NCBI GenBank assembly: GCA_030390025.1
Contig: CM059432.1
Coordinates: 89,034,001-89,098,000 of the forward strand
Direction: 5' to 3'
Length of the DNA stretch: 64,000 nt
Origin: Squalus acanthias
Lineage: Eukaryota
Positions within the stretch are counted from its first letter, which is position 1, and each line of letters opens with the position of its first letter. The translations under genes and the position numbers were made by a program. The notes beneath the pieces are model-generated. The model was not told where the DNA came from. It did not search any database and saw only the letters and a program-made list of their open reading frames with translations. Of the stretch, positions 5,898 to 39,948 are shown piece by piece.

Positions 5898-6340
5898 TGT
5901 TGGTGAAAAATGAATTCACTCGAGTCTGTCTCAAAGCAGAAGATCACAGTTTATTTAACAGAGAGCTCTGGGAGAAGAGCCATAGACCCCGCGGTCTAGT
6001 GATCCACTTCTCGTCGTTACAGTGGTATCGAAACTTCTTTTATACATTATAGGGTTGGATACGCAATTCATTACATACAAATGTCTTCACCCAATCCCAT
6101 TCCCCCAGCAACAGCTCCTAATTATAATCTGCCCTTTAAGCTGTATTTTTACTTCCCTACCGAAACTATAAACATTGGGCCTCGCACATACACATCTTGA
6201 CCACAGACATTACTCATCGCACTGTGTCAGCGAAACCATTCTGTATTTACGAATTTACCTTAACTTTCACATTGCTGCTTTAACTTACATTCTTTAACTT
6301 TTACATTGTTGCTTTAAGCCCTATAATTTTTACCCTAACA
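5898..6340 (-). repeat. ERV-A 3' LTR
   Basis: Direct repeat of 11685-12127 with about 4 differences by eye. Preceded on the minus strand by a purine tract AGGAGGGAC (PPT, ~6341-6349). Confidence 0.95.
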
Positions 6341-6483
6341 GTCCCTCCTGTTTGTCCCTGATCAAAACTCCTTTTGTGACAGGGAACCAGCATCATACGG
6401 ATTTCTGGTAATGTAAGTAGATACTTTTACATTCCAGGGGCTCACAGTCCGTTAGTCAGACTGTGGCATCCTTGTATAGGGAC

Positions 6484-7662
6484 TCATATCCACACATCTC
6501 TCTCTCCGGGTGTCACTTGATTAACCATCATGACACTTACAGCAGGCCATGACATTTGAGCGCAACAACATTTTAACAATAGGGCCAGACCATACATCAC
6601 TAATATTATAACAAAGAACAAAATCAATCCTTGTACTACTGATATCCCGAGTGATCCCAACCATCCAGTTGCCCAGCCCAGCCCCAAAGGGTGGATGCCG
6701 GAGGTTGTTTTAATTTCTTTACTTCTTCCTGTATGTGTTCTGCCAAGTTAGTTATTGCTTCCGAGTTATCTGGTATGTAGGTACAACATTCTGTACCGAT
6801 TAGGGCACAGGTTCCCCCTTTTTCCACCAACACATAGTCAAGGGCCATCCGATTTTGTAGAGCTACTGTGCGGAGGGTTACCATCTCTACATTAACCTTA
6901 ACTAGGGCTTCAGCTGCATCATTGGCCACCTGCTCCAAGACGGAGGCCAGGTTAATGGATTCCCTTGCCAATTTAGCCACTCCATTCTCAGGGCAACCAG
7001 GGATAGGCCCTATGACTGCACACGAAATGAGTCCCGTTGTAGGGGATATACTTATTTACCTCTGGGGGGTCCCATTGTACTGAAAAGTCACCGCTTTCAT
7101 TTAGTGACGGGAGTTTCACACTACCCGTTTCACCAGGCAAGGCAATGTTATATGTGCAGTTACTGTAGCCCACAATAGGATCTGTCGGTCATCCCCTCTT
7201 TGCGAGACATAGTCCCCCCCTTTGTCCCTTCTTACTCCTCTTTCTCAGGAACGGTAGTAGATAGGAATCGTTATATGTTGACCATGTCCACCCACTACAA
7301 TATTCTGGGTTGTACCCATGACGTTGGAGCTTTGCTATAGTGCTGCCGTCTGTCTTGGCTTCATAACAGCCCACACTTGTGCATCCTGCTCTAACTCCAA
7401 ACATCCAACTGACTGTCTCATCATCACTAAGTGGGATTGGTTGTAGGGGGACTCCTTCCTCCGAGTGCGTGGGGACATGGGCGCAGACCCAACAGCTGGC
7501 AACATCAACTCTCTTGGCATATGTGTATGACATATATAAAAAGGTGTTCACCCGTAACCCTCTTTTGGCCCGTGGGGGTACTCTAGCCTGAGTCCTCCCG
7601 AGGCTACATATTATGATTATACAAACTAGCAAACTACACATGATATTGCATAACACATTCAT
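6484..7662 (-). pseudogene. env: ERV-A env, gamma-type (CxxC, ISD, CX6CC), with frameshifts and a deletion spanning the SU/TM cleavage site
   Basis: Signal-peptide-like MNVLCNIMCSLLVCIIIICSLG, RAKR, CWVC, immunosuppressive domain LQNRMALDYVL, CALIGTECC, and TM anchor LILFFVIILVMYGLALLL. Confidence 0.92.
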
Positions 7663-7766
7663 CTTATCACTTTATGTTAACAATGTCCCAAAGGCTATAT
7701 CGCCAACCGAACCGCTTTGTTGCTTGAAGATTCTATTTTGCTGTGGGGGTGAATAGAATACTGTCA

Positions 7767-7996
7767 TTAGGCTGGTTCCTCGATAATAACCATTTCGATT
7801 CCCTCCTCCTGCTCGACCGGTTGGAGTCGATGGGATTGCTCCCATACATGCTTCAGGATACTTCCCAGGGTGTATCCCATTAGGATAATGCATATTGTCC
7901 ATACCAACGTTTGCACCAGCACCCACTCCCATTCTTTGTATTGTCTAGCGTATTCTTCACTTCCCACAAAAGGTACTTGCTCTGGTGTAGCTATTT
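7767..7996 (-). CDS. Small single-pass transmembrane ORF of ERV-A (no ATG upstream of the conserved motif)
   Basis: Open frame ...ATPEQVPFVGSEEYARQYKEWEWVL followed by a hydrophobic stretch; aligns without gaps to ERV-B ORF 39055-39255. Confidence 0.6.
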
Positions 7997-8017
7997 TTAA
8001 GCTGGCGAAGGGTCATA

Positions 8018-8911
8018 GGGGTAAAAATTCACTTGGTTGCGCCTCCCGTTAGCGCCTTAAGAGGGCGCTAATGGGGCGCAAAGCCGCTAACGCCCGGGCG
8101 CAGCGATGTTTGCGCCGCTCGAGAACTTAACTTGAGATTGTGCGGCGGCGCTAAAACTTACCGCTGCGACCACCTGCGCGCGCAGATTGTGACGTCATTC
8201 CATGGTGCAACGCCCTTGTGGCGCCCCGTAGCGGAAATTGAGTGGCGCCCCCTGCCTTACCGCCTGGCGCTTCCAACGACCAGAAGACTGGAACGCTATC
8301 AATCGCTGTGGGGCTGGGGGGGGGCGCTATTTAAAGGGGGCCTCTTCCTGTCTTTTATTGTTGGTGGCATTTTTGAACTACGCATTCTGAGAGAGAGAGG
8401 GAAAGACTTCTGGAGAGATTCAACGTTGTGTGAAGGAGTTTTGGGTACTGAGCAGCACTTTGCAGGTTCATTTTGATTTGCCATTCCTTGTATCGATTTA
8501 GCAGAGACTGTGGGAGCTGCACTCTGAGCTCTTTGCCTGGTACTCTCCATTGTTCTTTCCAGCACATTTGATGTGCAAGTCTCTCCAGGCTGAGATTCAA
8601 GGCAGCAATGAACAGGATGTGGATGGAAAGCAAGATTAACCCTCCCCTTTAAGAACTGGCCCGTGCCATTGTGTGTGTGTTCCATTGCTGACTGACATTA
8701 CATGAGCTTCGCCAGCGCTTCGAGTTAGCACCTCACTCCTTGGCCTTTGCGCCTTAAGAGAGGTGTGCAGCGCCTGCTTTAGCGCTCCACTCACCTCCCG
8801 GGGCGGTAAAAGTGAAGTTTTCTGTCAGTGCCGATAATTAGCGCCAGGCGCTAATATTTGCGTCCGGACGATATTTGCGCCCCAAATGGGGCGCGACCTA
8901 ATTTCTACCCC
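8018..8911. mobile_element. Harbinger-type MITE (894 bp) inserted at the end of ERV-A integrase
   Basis: TIRs GGGGTAAAAATT / AATTTCTACCCC, 3-bp TSD ATA, many TAGCGCC motifs. A second near-identical copy starts at 63852. Confidence 0.88.
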
Positions 8912-9745
8912 ATAGACTTTTAGCTGTGTCCAGTGCTTCCATCGTCCCATGCTCTTCATATCAATGCAAGCACACGTATCTCCACTAATTAGAATCTGAT
9001 ATGGTCCTGACCATTTTGGGGCAAACCCGGGTTTCCCTGGTAAACCTTTAACCATTACCTTAGTCCCAGCGGGAGGGATATATGGGAACGCGGTCAATTC
9101 TAAATCCTTATCCTTTTCTTCCTGTCTGTCCCGCGTTTGCTGCCTCATTTCCTTTAATTGACTGCTTAATTCGAGGACATACCTTCGGAGCTTATCCTTT
9201 AGAGGACCCACATCCTCTCCTCCAGTTATTATGCCATGGGGGAGTTGCATTGCCCTCCCCGTCATTAGCTCATATGGTGATAAGCCCGTTGTTCGGTTTG
9301 GGGTGGCTCTTAGTTTCATTAAGACTGTTGGTAACACATCTACCCACTGTTGATGTTTGTCCCCTAAAGCCTTGGCTACGGCTGTTTTCAAGGTTCGGTT
9401 CATTCGTTCCACCATTCCAGAACTTTGGGGATGGTACGGAATGTGGAATTTCTGCTTTATGCCCATCCACTTGCATACATTCTTTACTACTGCTCCCGTA
9501 AAGTGAGTTCCCTGATCTGAGTCAATTTGGATCGGTATTCCCCACCTGGGAATTATTTCCTCTGCCATTATTCGTGCCACGGTGGTGGCAGTACAGTTCC
9601 GGGTTGGGAATGCCTCGACCCATCTAGTAAACTGGTCTATTATTACCAGGCAATACTTCTTACCCCTTGACGTGGGGAGGGGTCCAGTGAAGTCTATTTG
9701 TATATTTTCCCATGGGCCCCTCGGCCGTTGTTGGTGGGCCATCCG
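8912..9745 (-). pseudogene. pol: ERV-A integrase (core and C-terminus; HHCC domain deleted)
   Basis: QIDFTGP, IDSDQGTHF, YHPQSSGMVERMN (D,D35E) and GPY motif WSGPYQIL. Confidence 0.92.
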
Positions 9746-9799
9746 TATCTTAACGGGTCGTCCTGTTTTAAGGTCGCCCATACTGACTTCATTGCCTTG

Positions 9800-10257
9800 C
9801 ATATAATCCCATAGTCTCCTTCCTCCTTCCAGTCCTGGGCCACGAGTTTTGCACTTCCTACTGTTGCCAAATGGCAAAGTGGTTTTCCCCAGTTTACTTT
9901 GTTCCCGTCTCCCTGTACCCAGGTTAACTTTCCTTGTCGTGAATCTATTAACAAATTAAATTCTTTTAACAAATCTATTCCTAAGATAGTCCCCTCACTG
10001 TTTGGGCATACATAAAATTGTGCGGGTAATAGTCGTCCCGCCAATTCCAATACTTGTACCTCACTTTTAAATGCATGTAAACGCTCCCCTCCCAACCCCA
10101 CTATGTCTATCCTTTGTTTGGTGAGGGGAAGGGGTAAATCGGTAATGGATACAGAAGCTCCCGTGTCTACTAACATATCGTACTGCCGGCCCCCTAACAG
10201 TGCCGGTACATAGACTCTGGGATCTTCCTTCTCCCTCTTGATGGGGGCCGCTGCTAG
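9800..10257 (-). pseudogene. pro: ERV-A aspartic protease
   Basis: LVDTGAS catalytic motif and ILGIDLL motif; in frame with the gag stop at 10258-10260. Confidence 0.88.
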
Positions 10258-11194
10258 TCAGTGACCACCACCCTGTTCCTTTACATACTGCAGGAACTTT
10301 TGATACATATCAATGGTCCCGGTCTGGTTTGGCTCTTCCTTTTTTGTCCAACACCTCTCGGTTGAATGTCCCGGTCTTGCGCAATTAGCACATACCGGTC
10401 AGTTTTGTTTGGGGGCCCTACATTCTTTTGCCATATGACCCAACTTCCCAAATCTTTCAATATTGTTAATTTTTCTAAGGGCCTAAAAGCTTGGTACTTG
10501 GCTGTGGGATTTTGTACCATTCCCCCTCTTTTTAAAGGGGCTGCCTTTATTTTTATTACTGCTGCTAGTGTTGGAGCCTTTGCAGCTTCCAAGAGGGCCT
10601 CTATCCGCCGCTATTATGGCAAAATTTGGTATATAACTCCGACTGTAATTAAAGAGTCCTAACACTTTTCTGACCTCACCTTACCGAGACGGGTCTTGGC
10701 ATCTCTTGGATCGCCTTCCGTCGGTCTTGTGGCATGGTCCTTACCCCCTGGGACAATTGTTGTCCCAAATTTGTGACTGTAGTCTGCCCAATCTGTGCCT
10801 TTTTCGGGTCTACTTTAAACCCTCCTGTTTCTAGGGCTTGCAGAACCACCACCAGGGCGGCGGCATGCCCTCTGCTGTCTTCTGATGCTATCAAAAGATC
10901 ATCTACATATTGTAACTCTTGTTCTAATTCAAGAATTCTTTCATTTTTACTTGCAAGTCTAGTGTGGAGTCGCTGCACCTTGTTAGTTAATGCGACTAAT
11001 TGGTTTACTAGTATTACCCTCGCCTTTTTTGTCTTTTCTGTTTTTGACCCTCTACCACTTTCTTTTACCTTCGGATTCTGAAGCGGGTCCCACCCCTCCT
11101 TCGTCATCTTATCAACTAAACCCTTCCGGTCGTCTGCATAGAACCTAGTAAGGGATCCCATTTGTCCCCATTCTATTTCTTTCCCCGACGCCAT
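10258..11194 (-). pseudogene. gag: ERV-A gag remnants (N-terminus and two zinc knuckles) with an RT segment inserted between them
   Basis: N-terminal MASGKE...coiled coil, then YVDDLLIAS...LGLFNYSRSYIPNFA (RT, ~10610-10915), then GKLGHMAKEC and CANCARPGHSTERC knuckles. Confidence 0.8.
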
Positions 11195-11664
11195 TTGTAG
11201 TCCAACTTACAATCTTACCAAATGCTGAGTTCCTCTACTCGGGCTTGTTCTTGATACTTTAAAGACCTTCAAGCGGTTAATTAGTCACAACACACATATA
11301 TATTTGCTGACTTCACGATCCCAGGGTGCTTTGGAGCCTCTACGCCTACTTGATCCTGGCCGTCACGTGGGACTACGTCCTCTTAATTCAGGCTCAGGCA
11401 AGGTGTTTGAGACAAGCACCCTCCTTGTCCATGTCGTTTCGTCACTCACTCATTCCTTCGCGACATTTATCGCTACACAGTGTTCCCTTTAGTACTTGCG
11501 ATCCACACTCTCACAACTGTGTTCTCCTACCTCTCACAGACTTTACTTGATTCATGATGCTACGGCACTGTCCCTCCGCCTTTCCAGGTGACTCAATTTC
11601 TGGACGGTCAAAATTGACTTCTCGTCCGGGTTCACCGGTGTGGGCGGTCTTTCAGTTCCGGAGC

Positions 11665-11682
11665 ATTCTGCCAACTACGCCA
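11665..11682 (-). promoter_or_regulatory. ERV-A primer binding site, tRNA-Ser
   Basis: TGGCGTAGTTGGCAGAAT, 2 nt from the LTR; 16/18 match to the complement of the vertebrate tRNA-Ser(AGA/TGA) 3' end. Confidence 0.85.
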
Positions 11683-11684
11683 AT

Positions 11685-12127
11685 TGTTGGTGAAAAATGA
11701 ATTCACTCGAGTCTGTCTCAAAGCAGAAGATCACAGTTTATTTAACAGAGAGCTCTGGGAGAAGAGCCATAGACCCCCGCGGTCTAGTGATCCACTTCTC
11801 GTCGTTACAGTGGTATCGAAACTTCTTTTATACATTATAGGGTTGGATACGCAATTCATTACATACAAATGTCTTCACCCAATCACATTCCCCCAGCAAC
11901 AGCTCCTAATTATAATCTGCCCTTTAAGCTGTATTTTTACTTCCCTACCGAAACTATAAACATTGGGCCTCACACATACACATCTTGACCACAGACATTA
12001 CTCATCGCACTGTGTCAGCGAAACCATTCTGTATTTACGAATTTACTTAACTTTCACATTGCTGCTTTAACTTACATTCTTTAACTTTTACATTGTTGCT
12101 TTAAGCCCTATAATTTTTACCCTAACA
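11685..12127 (-). repeat. ERV-A 5' LTR
   Basis: Direct repeat of 5898-6340, adjacent to the PBS. Confidence 0.95.
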
Positions 12128-15100
12128 TACCTCCAGTTAATTATTGTGAAGACCGAAGCCATTGACATCGGCCCCCGCTACAAACTCCATTCATGGCCAC
12201 CAACTTCATCCATCTCAATGGCAACTGTCTGAGGCTGAACCAGACCGATCGCATCCTCGGTGTTCTATTTGACCCTGACATGAGCTTCTAACTTGATGGG
12301 CTCGATTTTACCAGGCCTGAGGAGGCGGGTTTGGAGGCGTGTGAGTTGTCGAAAATCGCAAAAAATGGCGGGCGGCTCCGATCCCGCCTCTGAGCAATTT
12401 TCCCACATTCGTGGTTTCAGACCCCATTTCCATCCCACCTCCAAGAGGCGGGATAGGTCCTTAAGGTCCTTAACAACCAGTTAATTGCCTCTATAATCCC
12501 ATTTGCAGAGGCCTTTCTGATTTTAACACATTTCCCCTGTCTTGCACGTCTCCTCTGGAACACGCCAGTTAATCCTTGGCGGCCTCACAAGTGGATTGCT
12601 TACTAACAGTTGCATCTCCACCATTAAAAAGGAGTTTTCACCAATGGTCATTTGCAGGTGGCAGTACTTTGTTGTCTCAGGTCTGGGGAACTTTTAGCAG
12701 GCCTACTCATTGTTGTGGAAGTTTGGAGCCTGACACCCATCTCCACTGTGACCTCTGGGAAACCCCTCTCCTCACCTTGACTGAGCGCTTCCTCAACTGA
12801 GGTATGTACCAGAAGCATAGGAACCATTTATTTCCTTTCCTCCTGGACATCAGATTTGGACGAAGCCCAGCCGCAGCAGCAGCAGAACCCTGAACAACAG
12901 CAGCACCAAGAGCAGGAGCAACAACAGGAGCGCCAAGCTGCTGCTCACCCACCTGAAGCTCCACAGGCCAGAAGGCGCCAGAGCGCGACCACATTGCTGC
13001 CCGGGATGCAAGGAACGCAATCATGTTGGCCAGATTTGCTTAGCCTGCACAATCAAAAACTTTTGCCTCGCACCTTCTTACCAGAGTATCGACAATGGAC
13101 AAGAGCCTGCGGATTTCTATCCCTCTGACCACCATATTGACAATTGCAAGTCGCCCTAAGCCCTCAATGTGGAAGTCCCATTTGCGAAATGACACAGGCC
13201 ACAACTTCAACAGTTTGCCATCAAATCTGTTTATCATAAAAATTCAACGATGGCTTGTCAAAAATCAATACAACAGAACACCCAAGTGACTACCCTTGTG
13301 ACTACTTGTGCTTTATCTTCCTCTTACTCACTTTCTTGCTGCTGCTGTCTTGACACTTTTGGCGGCCATCCTCTGGGGTTGCGAACCTGTGAGGGCTCGG
13401 CAACAGTCTGCTGCTCCTAAGGCTGTGCAGGGGCTGAGACGTCCATCTCAGTTGGGTGAGGAATCTGGTGGGGCTCTAACCGAGAGCTCTGCAGTGGTAT
13501 GGTCGTGTGAGCGCTTGGAGAGGAGCCCCCACTTCCTTGTTGTCTGCCACCAACATCCCTCTTATGGGTCAGCCCCACTTCAGAGCTAGCAAGTGGCTTG
13601 ACAGCACCTTGCTGCATTTCAGGGGGGCCATGAGGACCCGTTTCTGCACTGGAAGTCCTACTCCAGAGGACTTCCATGAAAGTCTAGTTTCTATGCTCAA
13701 TAGTTGACCATCACTCCTCAAGAGATGTCAGTCTATTCTGAACAATGACCATGCTTTCAATACCCTGGCGACTAAGCTCCTCTATGGCCGTAGCCATCCT
13801 CTCCTCTACCATAGCCATCCTCTCCTCTACGGTAGCCAGCCTTACTACGGAGGTAGCCATCCTTTCCACGGAGGTTGTCATCCTTTCTGTGGTGATGCAT
13901 ACATGCGTCAATGCCTCCACAAAGGCTCTGCTCATGTTCGCGATGGACTCCTCCATTCGCTCCACACTCGCAGCGACCCTGGAGAAAAAACCTGCCAGAG
14001 TTTCCTGCACCTCTTCCTGGAGTTCCAGCACCGCTCTCCTTCTGGGTGGACCTGAAGGCACAGGGTGGACATGCAGCTGAGCCGAGCTGGCAGAGTCCTG
14101 CGCCCTCCAACGAGGACTCTCCACTGCTGTCCCTGTCTCCACCATCTGCTGATGCTCACTTGTGATTGGTGATACACTAGGTAACAACACTACTCTATCT
14201 CGCGAAGGTCCCACCGAGGTGTGAGTGTCTGCGCTGGTGCTGGGTGCACTGAATTCTGCAGACGCTGCGCCCTCAGAGGTTGCAGCTTCCTCTGAGGAGT
14301 CTTCAGGCTCAGGCTGTTCTTCCTGGACAGTGGGGACGGGGGCTCTCGATGGTCCTGTGGGGGAGTAAAGGAAAGAGCTAGAGATGTGAGGTAAAGGTAG
14401 CATGCACATTGAATTGTGCAGATGATCATAAGTCAATCTGTTAGAGCATCAGAATCATTATCAGTCACTCATGCAATGTCAATGAGAGAGATACAAAACT
14501 ATTCTGTCACCAGCTTGCTGTGGTGCGCCCGTCTGTCCGTCCCCCACTTGTGAATCGTCCTCCACTCTGGCGATCTCCAGGGCCGCCTCCTCCGAGGTGG
14601 TGAGCTGGGCTACTGAGGGTGGCCCTCCTCCTGTCCTCGCTCTTTCCCTCTTATTGTGGGCTCTCTTTTCCTGCAATGAGGGACACAAGTGGAGTTTGAG
14701 TGAGAATGAAGGAGTGAGTGTAGAGAATCCATAGCATAGATGCTTAGAAGGAGATAAAGGGCCCTCCCTGTGTGTTGTAAGTTGTTGTCATTGCATCACA
14801 GTGATTGGGAGTGTGAGGGCTGCATGGTCGAATAGTTAAGTGAATGTGACCATAGAGAGAGAGGGAATGGGTAAGGGTGCAGGGTCAAGTGGGATGTGGA
14901 GGAAGAGGTTGGCAAAGCAGAGTGCTGGTGGTGAGAGGCGATGGGGATCAGATTGAGGGTGATGGGAATGTCATACTCACTTTTCTTGTGCGGAGAAGGT
15001 CATGAAACCTCTTCCTGCACTGCAGCCAGGTTCTGCTGCACATAGAAATTGCGTTTATCTCTTGGGCCACTTGCAGCCACACAGCTTTAGTCTGCTGGGG

Positions 15101-15141
15101 AGGCTTTTTCCTCCCTGAGGAAGGGAAGAGCACCTCCTTAT

Positions 15142-19759: not shown

Positions 19760-19764
19760 AAGAT

Positions 19765-27015: not shown

Positions 27016-27635
27016 TGAAAGGGTTAAAAGAGCTAAAATGAGGAAATTAAGGAACCAAGCATATATCCAACCATATAAAGAGTGGTTCTGAACAAGTTGA
27101 AAAGGGGGAAGTATGATGTAACATGGTCAAGACTACACACTACAAATCACTAATTGAGTAAAATATTAGAAATAACCTTGGAGTCGCGGTTGCTTTGGTG
27201 AAATCTTTCAAAGCAGTTTTAATTGGAATTACTTGAATTTAACCTTGGAGTTGCCAGATTAATGTGCACACGAACTGCAAGAAGTTGCACCTGAGAACAA
27301 CTATTTTGCACCCTGAAACCAACTATTTTGCATCCGAAACCGACTATTTGCACCCGAAACCACCTGGGGGATGCAATAAATGTATATATGTAATGTAAAT
27401 GATTGTCGGACAATAGCCACGACTCAGAACAAAAACTGTATATAAAGTAAAAGATTTTCAGCGATCGGAGAGCATTCGTCCTAAGATGAGTGTCTCCCCT
27501 GTCGACTTGTAATAAAGTTAATTTACTGGATGAACCTCCGGACTCCGAGCGATTGATTGGGAATAAGGCGGACATTGACCCTTTATATCAGAGGCTCCGT
27601 CTCTGGGAGAAGAAGCTCTCCCAGTTTACCCTACA
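27016..27635 (+). repeat. ERV-B 5' LTR (620 bp)
   Basis: Direct repeat of 39371-39948; TATATAAA at ~27440 and AATAAA at ~27511. Confidence 0.95.
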
Positions 27636-27638
27636 TCT

Positions 27639-27656
27639 TGGCGTAGTCGGCAGGAT
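27639..27656 (+). promoter_or_regulatory. ERV-B primer binding site, tRNA-Ser
   Basis: TGGCGTAGTCGGCAGGAT is an 18-nt complement of the tRNA-Ser 3' end (ATCCTGCCGACTACGCCA). Confidence 0.92.
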
Positions 27657-28209
27657 CTACCGGACGGGCTGAGTAGAGACATTGGGCTCGAATTTCATCG
27701 GGCCGTTGAGGCGGGATTGGAGGTGTGTGGGTGGTTAAAATTGCAAAAACTGGCAGGCGGGCCCAACCCGCCTCCATCCTGCCTCCAAGCAATTTTCATT
27801 AAATCGTGTCTACTGGTCCCGTCTCCGTCCCGCCTCCAAGAGGCGGGCTAGGCCGTTAAGGCCCTTAAGCACTAAATTGCCTCTATAATGCCATTTTGAT
27901 AGGTCTTTGTGATTGTAACCCTTTTCCCACGTGAAGCACGCCTGTTCTGAAACATGACAGTGAAACCTGGCGGTAGCACAATTGGATTGCTGACTATCAG
28001 CTGCAGCTCAACCATTAAATAGGAGATTTGATCAGCTGTCATTTGTAGGTGGCAGGACTTTGCTCTCTCAGGTCTGGGGGAACTTTTAGAAGGCGTAACC
28101 ACAGCTGTGGAAGTTTGGAGCCTGACACCCATCTCCAGTGTGACCTCCTGGGAAACCCCTCTCGCCACCTTGACTGAGCGCTTCCTCAACTGAGGCATAT
28201 ACCAGAAGC

Positions 28210-29852
28210 ATGGGAGCCATTTATTTCCTTCCCTTCTGGACATCAGATGAGGACGAAGACCAGCCACGGCACCAGCAGAACCATGAACAGCAGCAGCACC
28301 AATAGCAGCAGCACCAACAGCAGCAGCAACAACAGGAGCGCCAAGCTGCTGCTCACCCACCTGAAGCTGCACAGGCCAGAAGGGGCAAGCGCATGGAAGC
28401 CCGTCGGCACAGGAGATACCCCGCAAACAGGGTCTACAGACACAGGGACAGCTACCTCAACATGTCTGAGCAGCAGTGCCAAAGGCGGCTCCGACTTTCG
28501 CGAGAGGTAGTGGGTGACATCTGTGCAATGCTACAACAAGACCTGGAGCCAGAGGACCAGGTGGACACCCCTTACCAGTGGCCCTCAAAGTCACCACTGC
28601 ACTCAACTTTTTTGCCTCAGGCTCATTCCAGGGATCAGCAGCAGACATCAGCGGCATCTCCCAGGCGGCCGCACACACTTGCATCATGCAGGTAACCGAT
28701 GCCCTCTTTGCCATCGCGCACAATCACATCCATTTCACCAAGGATCGAGCAAGTGTCACGGCGCATGCGGTTGGTTTAGCTAATCTGGCAGGCTTTCCAA
28801 GGGTCCAGGGTGTAGTTGACTGCGCACATGTGGCCCTTAAGGCACCCCATCGCAATCCAGGTATTTTTGTCAACCGCAAGGGCTTCCACTCCCTCAACGT
28901 GCAGCTGGTGTGTGACCACAAGAAGGAAATTTTGCATGTTTGTGCCAAGTACCCTGGCAGTTGCCATGACTCCTTCATACTGCACCAGTCTAGTGTGCCT
29001 CCACTATTCAGTTCACCAGACCAACTTGACGGATGGCTACTGGAGACAAAGGCTATCCCCTGAAGACGAGGCTAATGACGCCGTTGAGGAGCCCATCCAA
29101 CGAAGCTGAGGAGAGCCACAACTCCAGCCACATGTCCACCAGAGCCATAATAAGGGGCTGCTCTTTCAAAACTGAGATGAGGAGAAACTTCTTCACTCAG
29201 AGGGTGGTAGGTCTGTGGAATTTGCTGCCCCAGGAAGCTGTGGAAGCTACATCATTAAATAAATTTAAAACAGAAATAGACAGTTTCCTAGAAGTAAAGG
29301 GAATTAGGGGTTACGGGGAGCGGGCAGGAAACTGGACATGAGGCTGAGTTCGGATCGGTCAAGGCCCTGTGGGTGGCGGAGCGGGCTGAGTGGCCGGGTC
29401 CTGCTCCTACTTCTTGTGTTCTTTAGATTTGAGGTTAGGATCAGATCAGCCATGATCTTATTGAATGGCGGAGCAGGCTCGAGGGGCCGATTGGCCTACT
29501 CCTGCTCCTATTTCTTATGTTCTTATGTTCTTATAATCGAGCAAACCATCGGTTTGCAGAAGATGCGCTTCAGATGCCTGGATAGATCAGGTGGAGCCCT
29601 ACAGTACTCAGCAGCCAGAGTCTCCAGAATCATTGTGGTTTGCTGTTCACTTCACAACATGGCACAGCGTCGTAGCTTGCTGATTCCTGAGGACCAAGTG
29701 GCTCGTCACATATCCTCCTCAGATGAGGAGGAGGAGGAGGAGGAGAGAGAAAACGAACATCTTGCTGAGGCCCATCAACCAGCAGCAGCAGTACACGAGA
29801 ACATTGCTGCCCGGGATGCATGGAAAGACTCATCTTGGCCAGATTTGCTTAG
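28210..29852 (+). pseudogene. Harbinger copy 3 transposase (stops, frameshifts, CR1 insertion)
   Basis: VVDCAH, HDS, GDKGY and IEQTIG in broken frames. Confidence 0.9.
29152..29532 (+). mobile_element. CR1 3' fragment (same subfamily as 15142-18037)
   Basis: Near-identical to the reverse complement of 15142-15530; flanked by an ATAAT duplication. Confidence 0.92.
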
Positions 29853-30109
29853 CCTAGCCAATCAAGCACTTTTGCCTCACAGCTTCTTACCTGAGCATCG
29901 ACAATTGCCAAGAACCAGCGGATTCCTAGCAATTTGAACACCATACTGACAATTGCAAGTAATCCTAAGCCCTCAATGTGGAAGTCCCATTCGCGAAATG
30001 ACACACGCCACAACTACAGCAGTAGCCATCAGATTTTTTATTTACAGTAATCATCTGATGGCTTTTTAACATAAAACATTAAAATTCACCCAAGTGACTA
30101 CCCTTGTGA

Positions 30110-32078
30110 CTATTTGTGCACTATCTTTCTCTTACGCGTGCTCCTATGTGGTGCTTCCCCTCTGGCTTCAGCAGATGTGGAGGCCCCTTGCTCACTTTCT
30201 GCTGCTCCTGTCTCGACACCTTTGGCGGGCGTCCTCTGGGGTTGCAAACCTGTGAGGGCGCGCCAACAGTCTGCTGCTCCTGTGGCTATGCAGGGGTTGA
30301 GACGCCGATCTCAGTTGGGTGCGGACTCTGGTGGGGCTTTGACCGAGGACTTGTCAGTGGCATGGAAGTGTGAGCGCTTGGAGAGGAGCCTCCACTTCCT
30401 TGTTCTCTGCAAACAACATCCCTCTCATGGGTCAGGTCCACCTCAGCGCTTGCAAGTGGATTGAGAGCACCTTGCTGCACATCAGGGCGGCCATGGGGAC
30501 CCGTATCTGCACTGGAAGTCCTACTCAGAAGGACTTCCATGAAGGTCTGGTTTCTGTGTTCAATAGATGACCATCGCTCCTCCAGAGATATCATTCTATT
30601 CTGAACACTCACCATGTTTTCTGCACTCTGGCGACTTATCGCCTTCATGGCCGCAGCCATCCTCTCTACTGTAGCCATCCTTTCGACGGAAGTTGCCATC
30701 ATTTGCACGGAGGTTGCCATCCTTTCCGTGGTGATGTGTTCATGCGCCAATGCCTCCACAAAGGCTCTGCTCATGTTCACAATGGACTCCTCCATTCGCT
30801 CCACACTCGCAGCGACCCTGGAGACAAAACCTGCCAGAGACTCCTGCATCTGTTCCTGGAGTTCCAGCACCGCTGATCTTATGGATGGACCCAACGGCAG
30901 AGGGTCGACATGCAGCTGAGCCAAGCTGGGAGAGTCCTGCGCCCTCTGACTAGAAATCTCCACTGCTGTCCCTGTCTCCACTATCTGCTGATGCTCACTT
31001 GTGAGCTGTGATACACCAGGTGACAACACTACTCTATCTCGCGATGTTCCCTCCGAGGTGTGAGTGTCTGCGCTGGTGCTGGGTGCGCTGAATTCTGCTG
31101 ACGCTGCGCCCTCAGAGGTTGCAGCTTCCTCTGAGGAGGCTTGAGGCTCATGCTCTTCACCTGGATAGTGGGGACGGGTGCTTGCGATGGTCCTGGGGGG
31201 GAGTAAAGGAAAGAGTCAAAGATGTGAGGCCAAGGTTACGTGCATATTGCAGATGATCATAAGTCCATCTGTTAGTGCTTCAGAATCATTATCAGTGACT
31301 CATGCAATGTCATTGAGAGAGATGGAAAACTATTCTGTCACCAGCTTGCTGTGATGCGCCCGTCTGTCCGTCCCCTACTTGGGAATCTTCCTCCACTCCC
31401 ACCATCTCCAGGACCGCCTCCTCCCAGGTGGTGAGCTGGGCTACTGAGGGTGGCCCTCCTCCTGTCCTCGCTCTTTCCCTCTTATTGTGAGCCCTTTTTT
31501 CCTGCAATGAGGGAGACAAGTGGAGTTTGAGTGAGAATGAAGGAGTGAGTGTAGAGAATCCATAGCATAGATGCTTAGAAGGAGACAAAGATGGAGTGAG
31601 GTGGCAAGACCAAGGGCCCTCCCTGTGAGTTGTAAGTTGTAATTGCATCACAGTGATAGGGAGTGTGAGGGCTGCATAGTCGAATAGTTAGGTGAATGTG
31701 ACCATAGAGAGAGAGGGAATGGGTAAGGGTGCATGGATGTCAGTGTCAAGTGGGATGTGGCGGAAGAGATTGCTAAAGCTGAGTGCTGGTGAGAGAGGCA
31801 ATGGGGATCAGATTGAGGGTGATGGGAAATTCATACTCACTTTTCCTGTGCGTAGAAGGTCATGAAGCCGCTTCCTGCACTGACGCCAGGTTCTGCGGGT
31901 TATTGACAGAGTTGACCTCCTCTGCCACCTGGATCCACACAGCCTTGGTTTGCTGGGGAGGCTTCTTCCTCCCTGAAGAAGGAAAGAGCACCTCTCTGTT
32001 TGCTCTTGCTCCCTCTACTAAAGCCTGCAGGGCAACGTCATCAAAGCGGGGTGCAGACCTAGGTCTCTGGCTGGCCAT
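30110..32078 (-). pseudogene. Harbinger copy 3 Myb/SANT-like gene, frameshifted
   Basis: MASQRPRSAPRFDDVALQALVEGA...; same three-exon layout as copy 4. Confidence 0.88.
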
Positions 32079-32628
32079 TCTTCCTGCAGGTGCCTCTAAC
32101 ATGCAAGGGCAAAAGCTTGGCAGTCTGCAGAAGAAGCAAGGCTTGTTGCAGACCTTAAATGCAGCAGCAATGATGACGTCATCGGAGGCGACTTTCAGAC
32201 TGGAAAAACTCACTGGCCATGGGTTCCCACACGTTGGAACTTAATTGGCCAATTAGGTTAAAATGGCATCATTCTCCCACATCGATTTAGAATCGGGTGG
32301 CTAACACGAAATGCAGATTACACGACCCCAGCCCACCCCAGTATCAAAATCCAGCCCATTGTCTCCTTGCATCGAAGCCCAAGGCCGGAGATCCAACGAA
32401 TCTGAGGCAGAGTCCGGATACGTGAGCAAAACAACTTAGGTGCGCGTTTGGACATTGTAAAAATGAAAATGTCTGAATAAGTTGTGGAGCTTGGGTTATA
32501 TAGGATTGGATATAGGGAAAATCCAATCTAGGCGGAGTTAAAACCGCATAAGCAGGGAAGGTCCCTGAAGGTCCGGGGAAGTCCCGGAGGTAATAAACAG
32601 GGGGAACTAGCAAATCCATCCTGAAAGA

Positions 32629-32862
32629 ATGGCGAACAAAGAGGACGCCAAAAGATCTAAACTCCCGTACGAGTTTGTACGAGACAAATATGAAAAGGTT
32701 ATGGGGAAGATGATTAAGAAAGGCTATGAGTCAGGAAACAAACCGAAATGGAAAAACAATTGGTGGATGCAACAGAAAGGGAGTAAGGAGGATGAGGCAA
32801 TAGTGGTTTGTGTAGAAACAGGACATAAGTATTGCGAGAAGAAAGGTAAATGTCCCCTTTGA
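32629..32862 (+). pseudogene. gag: ERV-B gag N-terminal remnant
   Basis: Positioned after the leader; weak similarity to the ERV-A gag N-terminus (KM.K.G). Capsid, nucleocapsid and protease are not seen downstream. Confidence 0.5.
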
Positions 32863-33688
32863 AAAAGTGATAAACTTTATTCCGGGAAGTCTGTCTCAAA
32901 AAACCACAATGGGTTAAGAGAGAAACATAGCCATGTGGTTAAGCATAAAGTGCAGGAGAGAGAGGGAGAGATAAAGAAGGAAAAAGATCTAATTTGCAGG
33001 CTAACCAATCTGAAAACTCAGCAAAGGAAGGGAAAAAACAGGGATTTGGAAAGTCAGGAAAAGCTGCTGAGACGCCGATGTAAAAAGAAGAAAAAAAAGA
33101 GAAATTTAAAGTTTTACCGACATGGAAGTTATTAATGTCTGTGCCGAGACAAATAAAACACAAGATTTGCTGAGTGAAAGGAATCTTAAAAGGAATGCTG
33201 GGATCTCAGTTTGAGTGAAAGTGTGTTTTAAAGGTGAAAGTTTTCCTGACTGTGAATGTTTAAGAAGTTACAGTATTTCTTTTGTCTGAAAGTCTGTCTT
33301 TAAAAAGTGTCTGTCATTTTTGTTTTAGCTCCACCCACTCTTTTGTACAGCGAGCTAAAAGCTGTTTAACCCTTTGAAGACTTATCTTGAAGGATGGACA
33401 AGCGTGTGTTGTTTTAAGTTTGTTAATTGTTTTACGAAAGATAAGCTTCAGCCTTGAAGTCACAGATGCCAATGTGCCTGGAAGAAAATGAATTTGAATG
33501 TTTACAAGGCATGGGTAATTGTTTCTTTGTTAATGTGGCTCTGGTTTCTTTCTTTTCCAAGTGATACTGGTTAGTTAAGAAAAAATTGATCTGGATTAAA
33601 TTGGAGTTATGAGGTTAATTAACCTATCGAAACCAGACTTTTATTGTGACCACGGTGAAATTTTGTTTGGTGTAAATTTGTGTAGACC

Positions 33689-36598
33689 GCATTGAATAAG
33701 ATAACTCCGCGACAATATCCGATAGTGGCGAACCCGTCCACCATCCTACATGACCTAGACCCTAAGGCCAAAGTGTTTACGGTGTTAGATATAGAAAATG
33801 GGTTCTGGAGTTTGCCCTTGGACCAAGAGTCCCAGGACAAATTTGCATTCACAGTAGGAAATCAACAATATACGTGGACCCGGTTACCTCAGGGATTGCA
33901 CAACAGCCCGGCAATTTTTCACCAAGCAATGGCAGAAGCCATGGAAAAGGTGGACTTGAAACCAGAAGAAAGTACCATCACCCAATATGTAGATGCCCTG
34001 TTAATAGCATCCCCAAACATGGAAAGCCATTTATGAGCCCTAACTAAGGTGTTGGGAGCCCTGAGAAAGATGGGGTTTAAAGCCTCACCCCGGAAAGCCC
34101 AGATAGCCCAAAAACAATTACAATATTTGGGACACAGGATAAGTAGGGGACAGAAAGAAATGATGGAGGAGCGAAGACAGGCCATTAGGGACATGCCAAG
34201 GCCTGTAAATGTAAGAGGGTACGAAAGGTGCTGGGATTATTTAAATACAGCCGGAACTTTATACCACCCTAGTGGAACCAATACAGAAACTGGTCAAAGG
34301 TACAAAGGGACCTATGGAAGGGATAGATTGGGGAACTGAGCAAGAAGAGGCATACAACACCCTTAAGCAAGAACTTATAACGGCCCCTGCATTAGGACTG
34401 CCAGACCATACCCGACCCTTCCACTTGTACTGTGACCAGGACCAAGGGAGTTATTCAGCCGTGGTAATGCAAGATCACGGAGGGAAACAGAGACCCGTTG
34501 CGTATTACTCCACCAAGAGAGATCCAGTAGCGAAGGCAATGCCACGATGTGTGGCTGCAATAGATTGTGCCACATGGGCGGTGCGAGTAAGCGAACCAAT
34601 AGTGATGATAGGAAAGGTAATTTTGCATACCCAACATACCTTAGTGGAACTACTTAACACAGGAAAATTGCGAACCATATCGGATAGCAGAAAGGCTAAA
34701 TGGGAAGCTATATTACTCCCTAGGGATGGAACTGTGATAATACAAAAACATACCGGGGTTAATCCAGCCACGGGCATATTAACGGAAGGGGAGGAACAGA
34801 GCTGTCAGATGAAAATGGAGGAAGAAATAGGCAGTGGAGTAAAGGAAGTCCCACTGGAAAACCCCGATATGGTGATTTATGTAGATGGATCCCGAAAATA
34901 TATCAACGGAGAACTCAGAACAGGGTGGGCCGTAGTAAATCAGGAGGGAAAGACCCTATTTAAGGAGCCCTATATGGAGATAAGTCAGCACAGGTAGCGG
35001 AGCTAGTGGCCCTAATAAAAGCATTGGAAATGGCAAAGAACAAATGGGTAAATGTCTACACGGATAGCCGATATGCCTTTGGAGTGGTGCATGATTATAT
35101 GACACTATGGGCCCGGAGGGGTTATATGACCTCCACTGGAGAGGTAGTAAAACATGGAAAACTAATAGAAAGGTTAGTTAAGGCTGCATGGGCACCCTTA
35201 GAAACCGCGGTAATTAAAATAAAGGCCCACACGAAGATAGACATGGACTCACAAGAACCCCAGGACCCGGCCCCCATAGGGACTAGGTATGCGGACTTAG
35301 CTGCAAAATTAGCTGCGGAAGAAATGCAACCAGAGACCGCGTTTAAAAACAAAATAAATATGGTCATGACGGTCAGTGGGCTACAGGAAGTGAATATAAT
35401 GGAAGTACAAGAAAATACTAGTAAAGAGGAAAAGGAGAAATGGAGACAAGCTGGCACGCAATTACAAGATGGAATTTGGAAATGGGGCCCACGTAACCGG
35501 GTGGTGGCACCGGAATGTTGTAGGCAACAGCTGATGGCGCTATACCATGGCGTAACACATACAGGCAGAAGTGACATGTTACACCTACTGACACAGTACT
35601 GGTGGTGGCTGAAGATGGGTCGAGAACTGGCAAGGTATTGCCACCGTTGTATAATATGCGCTCAAAGTAATGTAGGACAGAGATGTAGAGTTAGAGTAGC
35701 ACACCAACCCAGGCCCCAAGGACCCTGGGAAAACTTACAGATTGACTTTACCGGCCCCTTCGCGCAGGACCGGGGGAAGAAATATTGCCTGGTAATAATT
35801 GATCAATTTACCAGGTGGGTGGAAGCCTTTGCCACCCGAGATTGCTCTGCAAAAACAGTTGCACTAATATTGGCTACCGAGGTTATACCCCGTTGGGGAA
35901 TGCCTCTGCAAATTGACTCAGACAATGGCACCCACTTTACCGGTAAAATAATGAGAGAAACATGTAAGCTGTTACACGGAACACAAAAATACCACATACC
36001 ATATCACCCCCGGAGCTCGGGGATGGTAGAAAGAATGAATAGGACACTGAAAAACGCGCTGACAAAAGCCATCCAAGAAACAGGGAAGGGATGGTCAGAA
36101 TTACTACCCAGCATATTAATGAGGCTGTGAGCCACCCCAGGACGTACGACTGGACTGACCCCATATGAATTAATGACAGGACGAGCGATGAGACTGCCAG
36201 AGGATCTGGCTGGAGGGGTGGGAGAACCAGGACCAGTACAAGATAGATTAAGACGATATTTAGTACAACTAAACCAGGAGGTACAAGCACTAAATACAGA
36301 AGTAAGGAACCAGCAACAGATTAAAGATCTAGAGAGACAAAATACTGGACTTAAACCAGAGGAGTTGCCCAAAATAGGCCAACAGGTAATGACACAAGTT
36401 ATTGGAAGAAAGGGAATGGAACCTCGTTGGATGGGGCCATATACTGTATTAATCACAAGTGATCCATGTGTTTGTCTACAGGAACCGACGGGCATGCGAT
36501 GGAAGCACTGGACCCAGGTGAAACCATTTAACACTAAAGATCCCCATTCTACCCTCTCCTCTAGGGAAAAGAGCTCGGAAAACGATGGACTAAGATAA
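33689..36598 (+). pseudogene. pol: ERV-B pol: RT, connection/tether, retroviral-type RNase H, integrase
   Basis: LDIENGFW, RLPQGLHNSP, YVDA (mutated YVDD), APALGLPD tether, VDGS...AELVAL...YTDSRY RNase H, HGVTH...CHRCIIC zinc finger, D,D35E core and GPY motif. Confidence 0.93.
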
Positions 36599-36605
36599 CC
36601 GTACC

Positions 36606-39031
36606 ATGAAGTTGCTGTGGATAATACTAACCATAGCCAGATGGCCAGGGCGGTCGGTACACCAGAGGGCACAGATGACGTGGAGGGACCCTGCTGCATC
36701 CCCACAATGGTATTAGATCAAACGACAATGGGCTGGGGACCAGTTGGGGGTGTAGATAGCATGCGATGTTGTGGACAGCCAGAAGGAGAGGAGTGCGTAA
36801 CAATACAGGGAAAAGAGGGAGAAACGAGGTGTTATAACTTGGGACAGATGGGGAACAGACCACAGGCCAGGCTTAGAAGGGGCGTGATAAACAGGGGGTG
36901 CACTAAATCTAAACCCGGTATGATTGTAGAAGGGAATTACATACCTAATAGCACTCAGCTTATAGAGGGCAACCCATATTATGGCCAATTCCCGGCGCCC
37001 AATCAAGAGTCCCCATATACAAAATGGGTTGAATGTGGTAAGGTTGTAACAAATACGATCAATGCATTCCCAGATGAGCAGGTATGCATCACATGTCGAA
37101 CCTCATACCCAAACATCCTGAGTGTGGAGGCATCGAAAAATGGCACAGTCTGGATGACAGAACCTGGAACTTGGGTATTGAGTGAAGGTACGAAGGACAG
37201 AAAATGATGCGTGATCCTGAAAGGAAAAGTAATAACTAAATATGGATGTGCCAAGTCAATAACCGCGGACTACACCAACTATAACATGCCCACGGTCGAA
37301 TGTACAGAAAACTTATTAAGGGTCCAATGGGGTGGACCACTGAAGCTGACACCGACGCCCCCACCGGCTAAACCCGCTACCATGGCTCCCAATACACAGA
37401 AAGAAGAGATGAGCGAACCAACGATGTTGCAATGCCCAATTATGACACCTGGACCCATGAATGGACTAGTATTATTTACCGAGGGAGAACAATTGTATGA
37501 TAACGTAAGACACAAAATTGTAAAGGTACTAATGAACTTAACCATGTTACAATGGCCAGGATATTGTGAAAGGTTCACTAAAACTGGAGAATTGTATGCA
37601 TATATGATAAAGAATGTAATTAACCAAGCTGCTGATGCGACAGGGGCCACTAGTTTCAGGAGACATGCTGCATTCCACCAAAGGATTAAGAGGAGCTTAG
37701 GAACCGATATATTTATGGGAACAAACACAGGGACATCATTTGTTAATGCCCTAGATATACAAGCAGTCCAAAGTAGTGTGGAACAACTACAAAGGGTAAT
37801 ACAACAGATTTTAGAGAAGGAAACTGGTTTAGTTCGACAAGGATCGAAGTTGGGAGAACATACGATAAGGAAATTACTCGAAGGAGTTAAGGTTATAGAG
37901 GACCATGCTAGCATCATCAACAAACTAAACCATAGAGATGAGGAACAGGCAAAAGACGGGGTAGGGAGAGACTTGTGCCATGCCTATGGCCAATGGATCA
38001 CCGGGCAATTAAAACACAATCTGGCACAGATACCGCGAGGTGAGGTACCAGACTGGATTAACAACACACAGCTCTATGGCCTGAGCCAGAATCCAGGCCC
38101 TCTGAGTGCTTGTACCCTCAAAGGGATGACCAGAGTATATCCAGTGATACAAAAATGTAAAGCAGAAGTGACAGCAATGATAGGCATGGTACTCCTGATA
38201 CCAGTGGTGAGACTAGACACGACTCCATACCCACAGTACCAGGTAACAAACATAGGCATAGTGAGGGGTGGGACATACCTCCAATACTATCCAATTGATA
38301 CCTATGCCATCAGGAAGAGTGGTACTATGAGAAGAGTCTCCCTAAACGGATGCCATGGGAAAGGAATGCTTACGATATGCCCACATCCAGGAGGAGAAGG
38401 TCCGAAGGATGAGTGCGGCTATAATAAGACAGAGGGGAGTATGTTGGAATTATCACGTGTTGATCACCATCACACCCGCTCGGGATATAGAGGCAAAGGG
38501 GAGTATTGTACAGCCACCACAGAGACTGAGTACCAGTATAGTAACCTTGTATGTGTAATCACAATGCCTAACTTCTGCTTTACGCCAAAGATCCCCGTGA
38601 CAATTGAACACACCAGATTGGTGTATGTACATTCAAGGGAGGAGATAAAACTAAGTGCGCTAGATTGTTTAAGGGATGAGTTGATCAATTATGAAGATCT
38701 GGTAGGGGTCTCAATACCCCACCTGCAAGAGGATCTGCAAGAAATGAAAGGGTTTAAGTAAAATGGTGAAACAATACGTAGCATTGCAAAGGAACCTTGG
38801 GGAACTAGAAAGGGACATAGAAGTAGAATACAGGAAGTCTCATGGTATGAGAAGCTGTGGGATTGGGGGATGAATGTCAACATACATCCATGGATCCGCA
38901 TAATTTCTCACATACTAGTTATAGTACAATTGGTTATGGCAATAGGATTGGGAATAGCAGCATGCGCCGCCTATAAAAAAATGAAGAGAACAAGAAAGGA
39001 AGAGGGAATGTACATGACATTGATAAAGTAA
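36606..39031 (+). pseudogene. env: ERV-B env, class I fusion protein without ISD or CX6CC (F-like)
   Basis: Acceptor-like (Y)nTAG at 36541-36564; ATG 36606 MKLLWIILTIA signal-like; RLRR and RIKR furin-type sites; heptad after RIKR; Cys-rich region; W-rich juxtamembrane segment and TM (ILVIVQLVMAIGLGIAACAAY) ending at TAA 39031. One in-frame stop and frameshifts. Confidence 0.85.
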
Positions 39032-39054
39032 TAATGCATACTGTCCGGTGGTAA

Positions 39055-39255
39055 TTGTTGCAGAAACCTCCTGGACAGATTCCCATTGAGCAGACGGAAT
39101 ATTACTATGAACAAGAGAAGGCTTGGGAGAAAGACCTGCTTAACGGATGTATAGTACTAACAACATTAATGTTCATAACCTATGTAACTGGGTGGATAAT
39201 ATGTCGATGGAAAGGATGTAGGGGACATAGAAATCAGGATAATATGATTATGTAA
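39055..39255 (+). CDS. Small single-pass transmembrane ORF of ERV-B (no ATG upstream of the TM)
   Basis: PGQIPIEQTEYYYEQEKAWEKDL followed by hydrophobic CIVLTTLMFITYVTGWIIC; homologous to ERV-A 7767-7996. Confidence 0.6.
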   Translation: MLQKPPGQIPIEQTEYYYEQEKAWEKDLLNGCIVLTTLMFITYVTGWIICRWKGCRGHRNQDNMIM

Positions 39256-39370
39256 ATTGGGTGACCCAATGGGTTGGATTTGATCACCTCCCCGGCAGGA
39301 CACCATAATAGGAGAAATAATCGGGTTGGTCAATGATTAAAAGGGATTAATCAGGACCAAAAGGGGGGAC

Positions 39371-39948
39371 TGAAAGGGTTAAAAGAGCTAAAATGAGGAA
39401 ATTAAGGAACCAAGCATATATCCAACCATATAAAGAGTGGTTATGAACAAGTTTAAAAGGGGGAAGTATTATGTAATGTGGTCAAGACTACACACGACAA
39501 ATCACTAATTGAGTAAAATATTAGAAATAACCTTGGAGTCGCGGTTGCTATGGTGAAATCTTTCAAATGAGTTTTAATTGGATTTACTTGAATTTAACCT
39601 TGGAGTTGCCAGATTAATGTGCACACGAACTGCAAGAAGTTGCACACGAGACCAACTATTTTGCACCCGAAACCACCTGGGGGATGCAAGAAATGTATAT
39701 ATGTAATGTAAATAATTGTGGGACAATAGTCATGACTCAGAACAAAAACTGTATATAAAGTAAAAGATTTTCAGCGATCGGAGAGCATTCGTCCCTGGAT
39801 GAGTGTCTCCCCTGTCGACTTGTAATAAAGTTGATTTACTGAACGAACCTCCGGACTCCGAGCGATTGATTGGGAATAAGGCGGATGTCAACCCTTTATA
39901 TCAGAGGGTCCATCTCGGGGAGAAGAAGCTCTCCCGGTTTACCCTACA
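39371..39948 (+). repeat. ERV-B 3' LTR (578 bp)
   Basis: Follows the PPT at 39359-39370; repeat of the 5' LTR lacking two ~21-bp units. Confidence 0.95.

Follow-up and report, generated by a model that had tools for sequence, protein, structure and literature searches.

F-like and gamma-type envelopes in two branches of one retrovirus clade in the shark Squalus acanthias

Two endogenous retroviruses (ERVs), termed ERV-A and ERV-B, lie in a 64,000-nucleotide stretch of the Squalus acanthias genome (NCBI GenBank assembly GCA_030390025.1, contig CM059432.1, positions 89,034,001–89,098,000 of the forward strand). This stretch is referred to as the window, and coordinates are positions within it. 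ERV-A is on the minus strand and ERV-B on the plus strand, with 15 kb between them. Their polymerase (Pol) sequences are related but their envelope (env) genes are of different classes, and the question is how this came about and which envelope was there first. A first-pass annotation took ERV-B to be a typical lokiretrovirus and ERV-A to be a loki backbone that captured a gamma-type env. The analysis presented here points to another history. ERV-A and ERV-B are dead copies and appear to represent two branches of a single retrovirus clade of cartilaginous fish, which is inside Retroviridae and is not lokiretroviral; its ancestral env was probably of the paramyxovirus/pneumovirus fusion protein type (F-type), and was replaced by a gamma-type env in the ERV-A branch. 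The probability of this reading, which includes a position of the clade between the class III grade (snakehead retrovirus, SnRV, and foamy viruses) and class I, is estimated at about 0.78. The swap between unrelated fusogen classes within the clade is regarded as established, while its direction, F-like to gamma-type, is favoured and not proven.

Trees of reverse transcriptase (RT) and integrase (IN) place ERV-A and ERV-B in one Pol clade, not in different ones, and the shark clade is monophyletic (100/99). With different env classes in one Pol clade, the envelope swap proposed by the first-pass annotation is borne out. Its assignment to lokiretroviruses is not, as RT+tether and IN trees place the clade apart from these viruses.

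ERV-A is a defective provirus at 5898–12127, minus strand, bounded by long terminal repeats (LTRs) that differ by 3 substitutions in 443 columns (Kimura two-parameter distance, K2P, 0.007). Its features, with target site duplication (TSD), primer-binding site (PBS) and polypurine tract (PPT), are:

11685–12127, minus strand: 5′ LTR, 443 bp, TG...CA; TSD AGGTA at 12128–12132
11665–11682, minus strand: PBS, tRNA-Ser(AGA), 2 mismatches (16/18)
10913–11194, minus strand: N-terminal piece of gag, in frame into the RT fragment
10543–10915, minus strand: displaced C-terminal half of RT (YVDD) with a small part of RNase H, both located upstream of the rest of gag (PF00078, E 1e-7; mapped on the fuller relative L011)
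9761–10547, minus strand: gag remnants with two zinc knuckles, an in-frame TGA, protease (DTGA) and the RT start, after which the remainder of RT and RNase H is deleted
8911–9765, minus strand: integrase (rve), core 70% identical to that of ERV-B
8018–8911, no strand: insertion of a DNA element at the end of IN; the element is non-coding and has 12-bp terminal inverted repeats
6484–7662, minus strand: gamma-type env (CWVC, immunosuppressive domain (ISD) LQNRMALD, CX6CC, transmembrane segment; PF00429, E 6e-9)
5898–6340, minus strand: 3′ LTR, PPT before it; TSD AGGTA at 5893–5897

ERV-A is thus a scrambled and deleted copy, which goes beyond the first-pass annotation. The order gag, RT piece, RNase H piece, gag, protease, IN (9761–11194) is common to several copies (L014–L017). 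Because these copies have the identical scrambled order, the layout is that of a propagated non-autonomous subfamily, which would have spread by complementation in trans.

ERV-B is a defective LTR-bounded provirus at 27016–39948, plus strand (LTR K2P 0.054), with the following features:

27016–27635, plus strand: 5′ LTR, inserted in a long interspersed nuclear element (LINE); TSD ATTGG at 27011–27015
27639–27656, plus strand: PBS, tRNA-Ser(AGA), exact (18/18)
27684–32357, no strand: Harbinger-type DNA transposon nested in the leader (DDE_Tnp_4; TSD ATT)
32629–33110, plus strand: N-terminal remnant of gag, end approximate; capsid, nucleocapsid and protease are missing
33686–36595, plus strand: pol remnant with RT, tether, RNase H and integrase, with frameshifts and stops (PF00078, PF17919, PF00075, PF17921, PF00665, PF18697)
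36606–39031, plus strand: F-like env, broken by stops and frameshifts (profile comparison, predicted fold)
39371–39948, plus strand: 3′ LTR, PPT before it; TSD ATTGG at 39949–39953

Most of gag and the protease of ERV-B are replaced by an AT-rich stretch without a long open reading frame (33093–33700). It is found again in locus L053 (93%), and also in L050 (75%), which belongs to a different Pol lineage.

The two elements are less alike than the first-pass annotation suggested. The integrase motif it quoted is present in both, but "closely related" is an overstatement: identity between the A and B families is about 63–64% in the RT segments and about 60–63% in Pol from RT to IN, and the LTRs of ERV-A and ERV-B gave no alignment on comparison. 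The gag starts, described as very similar, share just 9 of 27 residues (E 0.011). The common tRNA-Ser PBS and the 5-bp TSDs stand. Both PBS are complementary to the 3′ end of the tRNA-Ser(AGA) genes of this genome (3/3 loci scanned). PBS sequences differ among the clade lineages (L002–L007, L031–L037, L050, L052, L065, L067), and the variants presumably resemble other tRNA-Ser isoacceptors. The tRNA-Ser(AGA) PBS was considered as a marker of the clade or of lokiretroviruses and rejected, since other clade lineages and the loki references each have a different PBS. Shark substitution rates are thought to be slower, and for this reason ages derived from the LTRs are minima. At the mammalian rate of 2.2e-9 used in PMC7947760, LTR divergence gives ~1.5 million years for ERV-A and ~12 million years for ERV-B.

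The env of ERV-A (Env-A) displays the features of a gamma-type envelope: a CXXC motif (CWVC) in the surface subunit (SU), the ISD and CX6CC, all three noted in the first-pass annotation, and the transmembrane segment. The copy has sustained stops, a frameshift and a deletion of ~120 nt that removed the cleavage site and fusion peptide between SU and the transmembrane subunit (TM); its relatives retain both the furin site and the fusion peptide. All of 44 database relatives of Env-A except one contain PF00429. The closest, at 38–54% identity, come from sharks, sturgeon and pike and have no annotation.

It could be argued that this env is a chance insertion in a single copy, as a DNA element lies between IN and env in ERV-A. 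This explanation is refuted by the other copies. The element is missing from the relatives L011, L015 and L017, and in relatives without it IN runs directly into the same gamma env (94–97% identity); a further copy of the element starts at 63852. From the 150 A-integrase matches listed, twenty loci that had long frames or high identity were selected and fetched. A gamma-type env is present in 20/20 and its TM part in 19/20, an F-like env in 0/20. In a search with the TM region, 150/150 scored matches show 81–100% identity. The gamma env is therefore tied to the ERV-A lineage.

The env of ERV-B (Env-B) has a family-specific N-terminal region, followed by an F-type core from ~37430 with a furin site (RIKR) at 37682, heptads, a Cys-rich domain and a single C-terminal transmembrane segment (~38900–38970). 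The first-pass annotation correctly listed the furin site, heptads, Cys-rich region and transmembrane segment, together with a fusion peptide, which is only weakly hydrophobic: the 19 residues after RIKR have a mean hydropathy of 0.3 and a predicted local distance difference test score (pLDDT) under 50 in the model described below. It also stated that gamma hallmarks are lacking. There is indeed no ISD and no CX6CC in any of the three frames, but one CxxC (CITC) is found in the N-terminal part.

Sequence-level searches with Env-B gave no match in Pfam, nor in the PDB by phmmer or profile, and BLASTP against loki Env was not significant (E 0.23). Similarity was detected solely through profile-profile and fold comparison. 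By hhalign, Env-B matches the loki Env profile at 98.8% over 380 columns with 18% identity (gamma-env control, 4.5%), which indicates that Env-B is a remote homologue of loki Env. An AlphaFold2 model was made from the natural open reading frame at 37208–38758 with 34 sequences (pLDDT 68; predicted TM-score, pTM, 0.51). Foldseek against the PDB, with F proteins in the leading rows, yields respiratory syncytial virus F (E 1.5e-10), human parainfluenza virus 3 F (7e-10), foamy Env (6e-8) and also henipavirus F. With VIA-align the top 10 rows are all F proteins; the best has Z 11.3 (root mean square deviation, rmsd, 15.4, 352 aligned), and another Z 9.2 (rmsd 6.1, 279 aligned). Against BFVD a fish filovirus glycoprotein is at the top (E 2e-13), and feline foamy Env is also found. 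Env-B is predicted to be a three-domain class I fusogen of the paramyxovirus/pneumovirus F type with heptad repeats, in agreement with the F-protein likeness proposed in the first-pass annotation.

Several observations concern the wider family of Env-B. Env models of two walleye epsilonretroviruses match the Env-B model in BFVD (walleye epidermal hyperplasia virus 1, WEHV-1, E 5e-10; walleye dermal sarcoma virus, WDSV, 1e-5); no statement of an F-type match of epsilonretrovirus Env was found in the literature search. A profile search gave 60 Env-B homologues, and the named examples (20/60 looked up) are from sharks, frogs and the coelacanth. Among the 8 closest relatives the named ones (7/8) are from the sharks Mustelus and Chiloscyllium. 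The frog (Pelodytes, Mantella, Xenopus, Bombina) and coelacanth homologues P0152, P0163, P0168, P0183, P0175 and P0176 are all unannotated, and Mantella has 16 cluster members. F-like envs that resemble each other in the core are unrelated in the N-terminal region (36606–37400 compared with L038, L062, L064). This suggests that the N-terminal region may be an exchangeable attachment module.

Is the clade then lokiretroviral? Lokiretroviruses are characterized by an RT that is sister to those of all other retroviruses, an IN near CGIN1, an RNase H of the loki/foamy group and an Env resembling Mononegavirales F. Two genuine, near-identical teleost-type proviruses (L047, L048), found via a motif from the published RT alignment, served as loki references, and P0038, matched to the published SnRV RT, as the SnRV reference. 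The ERV-L references P0031 and P0033 were disregarded as chimeric gene models and uninformative. The explanation that both elements are lokiretroviruses, ERV-A having acquired a gamma env on a loki backbone, draws on the homology between Env-B and loki Env, on the tether plus RNase H and the stop between gag and pol, in which the clade and loki are alike, and on RT alone, where an approximately unbiased (AU) test of a shark+loki grouping gives p=0.106. The tether and second RNase H of ERV-B (PF17919/PF17917 followed by PF00075) are, however, common to all retroviruses and hence not diagnostic. RT+tether trees place loki outside the shark clade at 95/97 and 90/94, and the AU test on RT+tether rejects the shark+loki grouping (p=2.7e-6; mixture model 2.5e-4), as does that on IN (p=0.005). 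Loki IN groups with the frog/coelacanth proteins P0029/P0042 and not with ERV-A/ERV-B (99/98; identity 47–48%; CGIN1 is not in the tree).

The identities agree with the trees. RT of the A/B clade is 31–38% identical to loki, 30–36% to foamy viruses, 38–42% to SnRV, 37–42% to gamma-like Pol and 48–58% to a Pimephales ERV. RNase H is 23% identical to loki and 28% to foamy viruses, compared with 41–51% to class I and the nearer teleost ERVs (an identity comparison, not a tree). The loki RT signature motifs of the published alignment are absent from the A/B clade, the PBS of the loki references differs, and loki Pol is 1745 aa long compared with ~1185 aa in the shark clade. A search of this genome for loki RT found none above 40% identity among 138 scored of 16,967 candidates. 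This agrees with Fig. S1 of PMC7947760, where loki is recorded in 0/6 Chondrichthyes genomes. The loki explanation is thus largely refuted and has become very improbable; the clade would be loki-like in how its Env works, yet is no member of loki. Matches to the loki RT motif (5 loci in viral contigs, 1 locus in this genome) were dismissed as chance, as none has an RT.

Together with its teleost sisters (99/98), the clade takes an intermediate position, with the SnRV/foamy grade on one side and class I on the other (83–88 bootstrap). The class I sequences group together as a separate clade (96/88 to 100/98), which excludes the shark clade and the teleost sisters. In no tree that was built is the clade sister to SnRV or to epsilon-like Pol (deep nodes 82–90). 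The sequence data therefore suggest a place inside Retroviridae between class III grade and class I. The 5-bp TSDs, a feature of the SnRV-like class III group (clade Huo), have the size given for ERV-L/XtERV-S in a reference statement of PMC8278194.

The direction of the swap was approached by mapping env class on Pol lineages. In addition to the A-type loci, 17 loci from B-integrase matches and 23 further loci picked by F-like env were used. Of the 17, all B-type copies have Env-B (10/10), those of a third lineage have no env (6/6), and one of a fourth lineage has an F-like env. A Pol tree of 24 rows from this genome and 9 database proteins (914 columns) shows the gamma carriers as one clade (99/97), sister to the F-like L064 (97/95) and placed among the F-like B, D and E lineages. 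This gives four F-like lineages and one env-less lineage, with 2 changes of env state. In the RT+tether tree the ERV-B branch is basal and gamma is nested at 95/94 (84/93 in another tree).

There is also outgroup evidence. Of 18 loci picked by the distant Env-B homologue P0140, 16 belong to a deeper Pol lineage with a homologous F-like env (one of the others is weak, one is without Pol). These 16 score best against the Pol group P0029/P0032/P0042/P0035, which includes frog and coelacanth. Loki (PMC7947760) and foamy (PMC11468914) Env are reported as F-like in the portions of these papers available. F-like ancestry is favoured because the deeper lineage, loki and foamy viruses all have an F-like Env. 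The loci concerned are L074–L091, nearest to the frog/coelacanth NYNRIN-like P0029 and P0042; in database members of this lineage the integrase groups with loki IN (99/98) and the RT does not.

The opposite direction must be weighed, namely that the clade was ancestrally gamma-type and that an F-like env entered it once or several times, e.g. from the deeper F-like Pol lineage, and then spread sideways. F-like env demonstrably transfers between Pol lineages. Lineages B and D are 88–90% identical in env but 58–62% in Pol, L064 and L065 93% in env and 70% in Pol, and L054 and L065 88% in Pol but 53% in env, and env moves often among the F-like lineages. Class I is also closer to the clade than are SnRV, foamy viruses and loki, and a review, as far as its text was available (PMC9967133), regards gamma-type Env as ancestral for epsilonretroviruses. 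On the other side, the F-like envs in the clade are more diverged (33–53% identity between env families) than the gamma TM regions (62–100%), and are just 20–26% identical to the env of the deeper lineage. Both values fit a long residence of F-like env in the clade. As the best trees also put gamma nested among F-like lineages, entry of F-like env into a gamma-type clade is considered unlikely.

Replacement of an F-type by a gamma-type env thus remains the preferred reading, and a number of points weigh against it. The Env-B model has a pTM of only 0.51 and TM-scores of just 0.3–0.45. RT alone leaves the shark+loki grouping unrejected, as given above, and RT-only trees leave deep nodes open; the deep nodes otherwise have 82–90 bootstrap, with just two loki references, nearly identical to each other, and none that was sound for ERV-L/ERV-S. 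The copies were hand-picked from the matches listed. AU tests do not reject a grouping of all non-gamma lineages as monophyletic (p=0.113; 0.314 without L064; 0.053 on RT+tether). L064 fills just a third of the tree columns, and of the fuller copies of its lineage that were looked for, the two found are both without RT. Free exchange of env weakens the parsimony argument, and the comparison of env classes stops short of the closest relatives outside the clade, the teleost P0011, P0016 and P0020.

The following sequence of events is proposed. The ancestral virus of the clade would have had an F-type class I fusogen as env, 5-bp TSDs, a tRNA-Ser-type primer and a gag-TGA-pol arrangement. At entry, furin cleavage would free the internal fusion peptide, and the heptads would refold into a six-helix bundle, as suggested by the predicted fold and by the mechanism of F proteins. 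In the ERV-A branch the whole env cassette from the end of IN to the PPT would then have been exchanged for an unrelated gamma-type env. Copies with different env types resemble each other directly upstream of the PPT, and therefore the exchanged block would lie between IN and PPT. The new env would have had disulfide-linked SU/TM with CXXC, ISD and CX6CC and entered via an isomerised disulfide, as is established for that family. The most likely route is that the reverse transcriptase switched templates between co-packaged RNAs in a co-infected cell. The swap would have taken place before the gamma carriers radiated into at least four sublineages, and another branch of the clade would have lost env. 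The env-less lineage L031–L036 is abundant, and its LTR pairs are 99–100% identical where both LTRs are present. This points to recent spread by retrotransposition after env loss.

Related systems are known. Lokiretroviruses, as described by Wang & Han (PMC7947760), have gag-pol-env, tether plus RNase H and an F-like Env with an RXKR site, homologous to Env-B. They are apart in RT, RNase H and IN, differ in PBS, share 18% Env identity and are unreported there from Chondrichthyes. No smc-like region was seen in the ERV-A/ERV-B clade, unlike loki. Foamy Env and paramyxovirus/pneumovirus F (Fernandez et al., PMC11468914, available text) have the same predicted three-domain class I fold as Env-B, but there is no sequence-level match to Env-B, RT is just 30–36% identical to foamy, and Env-B has its single C-terminal transmembrane segment. 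The RT motifs of the shark clade are like those of snakehead retrovirus (P0038), yet the clade is not its sister; likewise, the match of the Env-B model to those of WEHV-1 and WDSV Env goes along with a clade that is not sister to epsilon-like Pol.

Class III-like Pol with gamma-type Env has been described before. XtERV-S (Yedavalli et al., PMC8278194, available text) has a class III-type backbone, a gamma-type TM, a tRNA-Ser(AGA/TGA) PBS and a 5-bp TSD; it is ERV-L-related and has a dUTPase, whereas the shark clade has a zinc-knuckle Gag and F-like sisters. No dUTPase match was found by Pfam in the Pol pieces of the window. In the accessible part of Chen et al. (bioRxiv 10.1101/2021.11.23.469661), ERV-SA.a-Ppe and SnRV-related Pol in anamniotes have a class III-like Pol with gamma-type Env, read as recombination, and 6 cartilaginous fish have ERVs with gamma-type env. 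ERV-A may belong to or near the ERV-SA.a-Ppe group. That screen was baited with gamma/beta env; F-like sister lineages are outside it and that part gives no direction. Envelope swapping, gamma-type Env on class III-like Pol and the F-like Env of loki and foamy viruses are therefore already known. What is new is the presence of both env states in a single non-loki clade, with a direction. Neither F-like Env in non-loki shark ERVs nor an F-to-gamma swap was found in the literature search, which did not reach subscription papers and bioRxiv supplements. Further related literature includes PMC8922424, PMC12583693, PMC11521997, PMC4977317, PMC12690878, and bioRxiv 2023.10.26.564294 and 2024.03.17.585361.

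These results bear on how retroviral envelopes are interpreted. An F-like Env alone is unfit for calling an element a lokiretrovirus. Earlier anamniote screens with gamma/beta env as bait are silent on what the gamma env replaced; in the present clade, which is neither loki nor foamy, sister lineages still carry the displaced envelope, and it appears to be F-type. F-like Env is extended deep into Retroviridae, to sharks, with homologues in frogs and the coelacanth. The question of the ancestral retroviral Env can now be put to the test if env class is mapped on Pol trees. It is an evenly balanced proposition that the F-type fusogen was ancestral to retroviruses, surviving in loki, foamy, the basal frog/coelacanth/shark Pol lineage, the shark clade and walleye epsilonretroviruses, and that gamma-type envelopes spread by repeated replacement, one of which is preserved here with both states. 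If so, scenarios 1 or 3 of Wang & Han, as set out in the text available, would be favoured, and the view of epsilonretrovirus Env as a recent derivative would be reversed.

The window has other inserted elements. One Harbinger family is present in several copies, 77–93% identical (1–2560, 12290–15140, 27684–32357, 53470–58630). Another decayed integrase-bearing element is at 47567–51516 on the minus strand (rve, E 8e-17). At 52365–53138 a reading frame encodes a GDSL-esterase-like domain, and a LINE-type RT comes after it.

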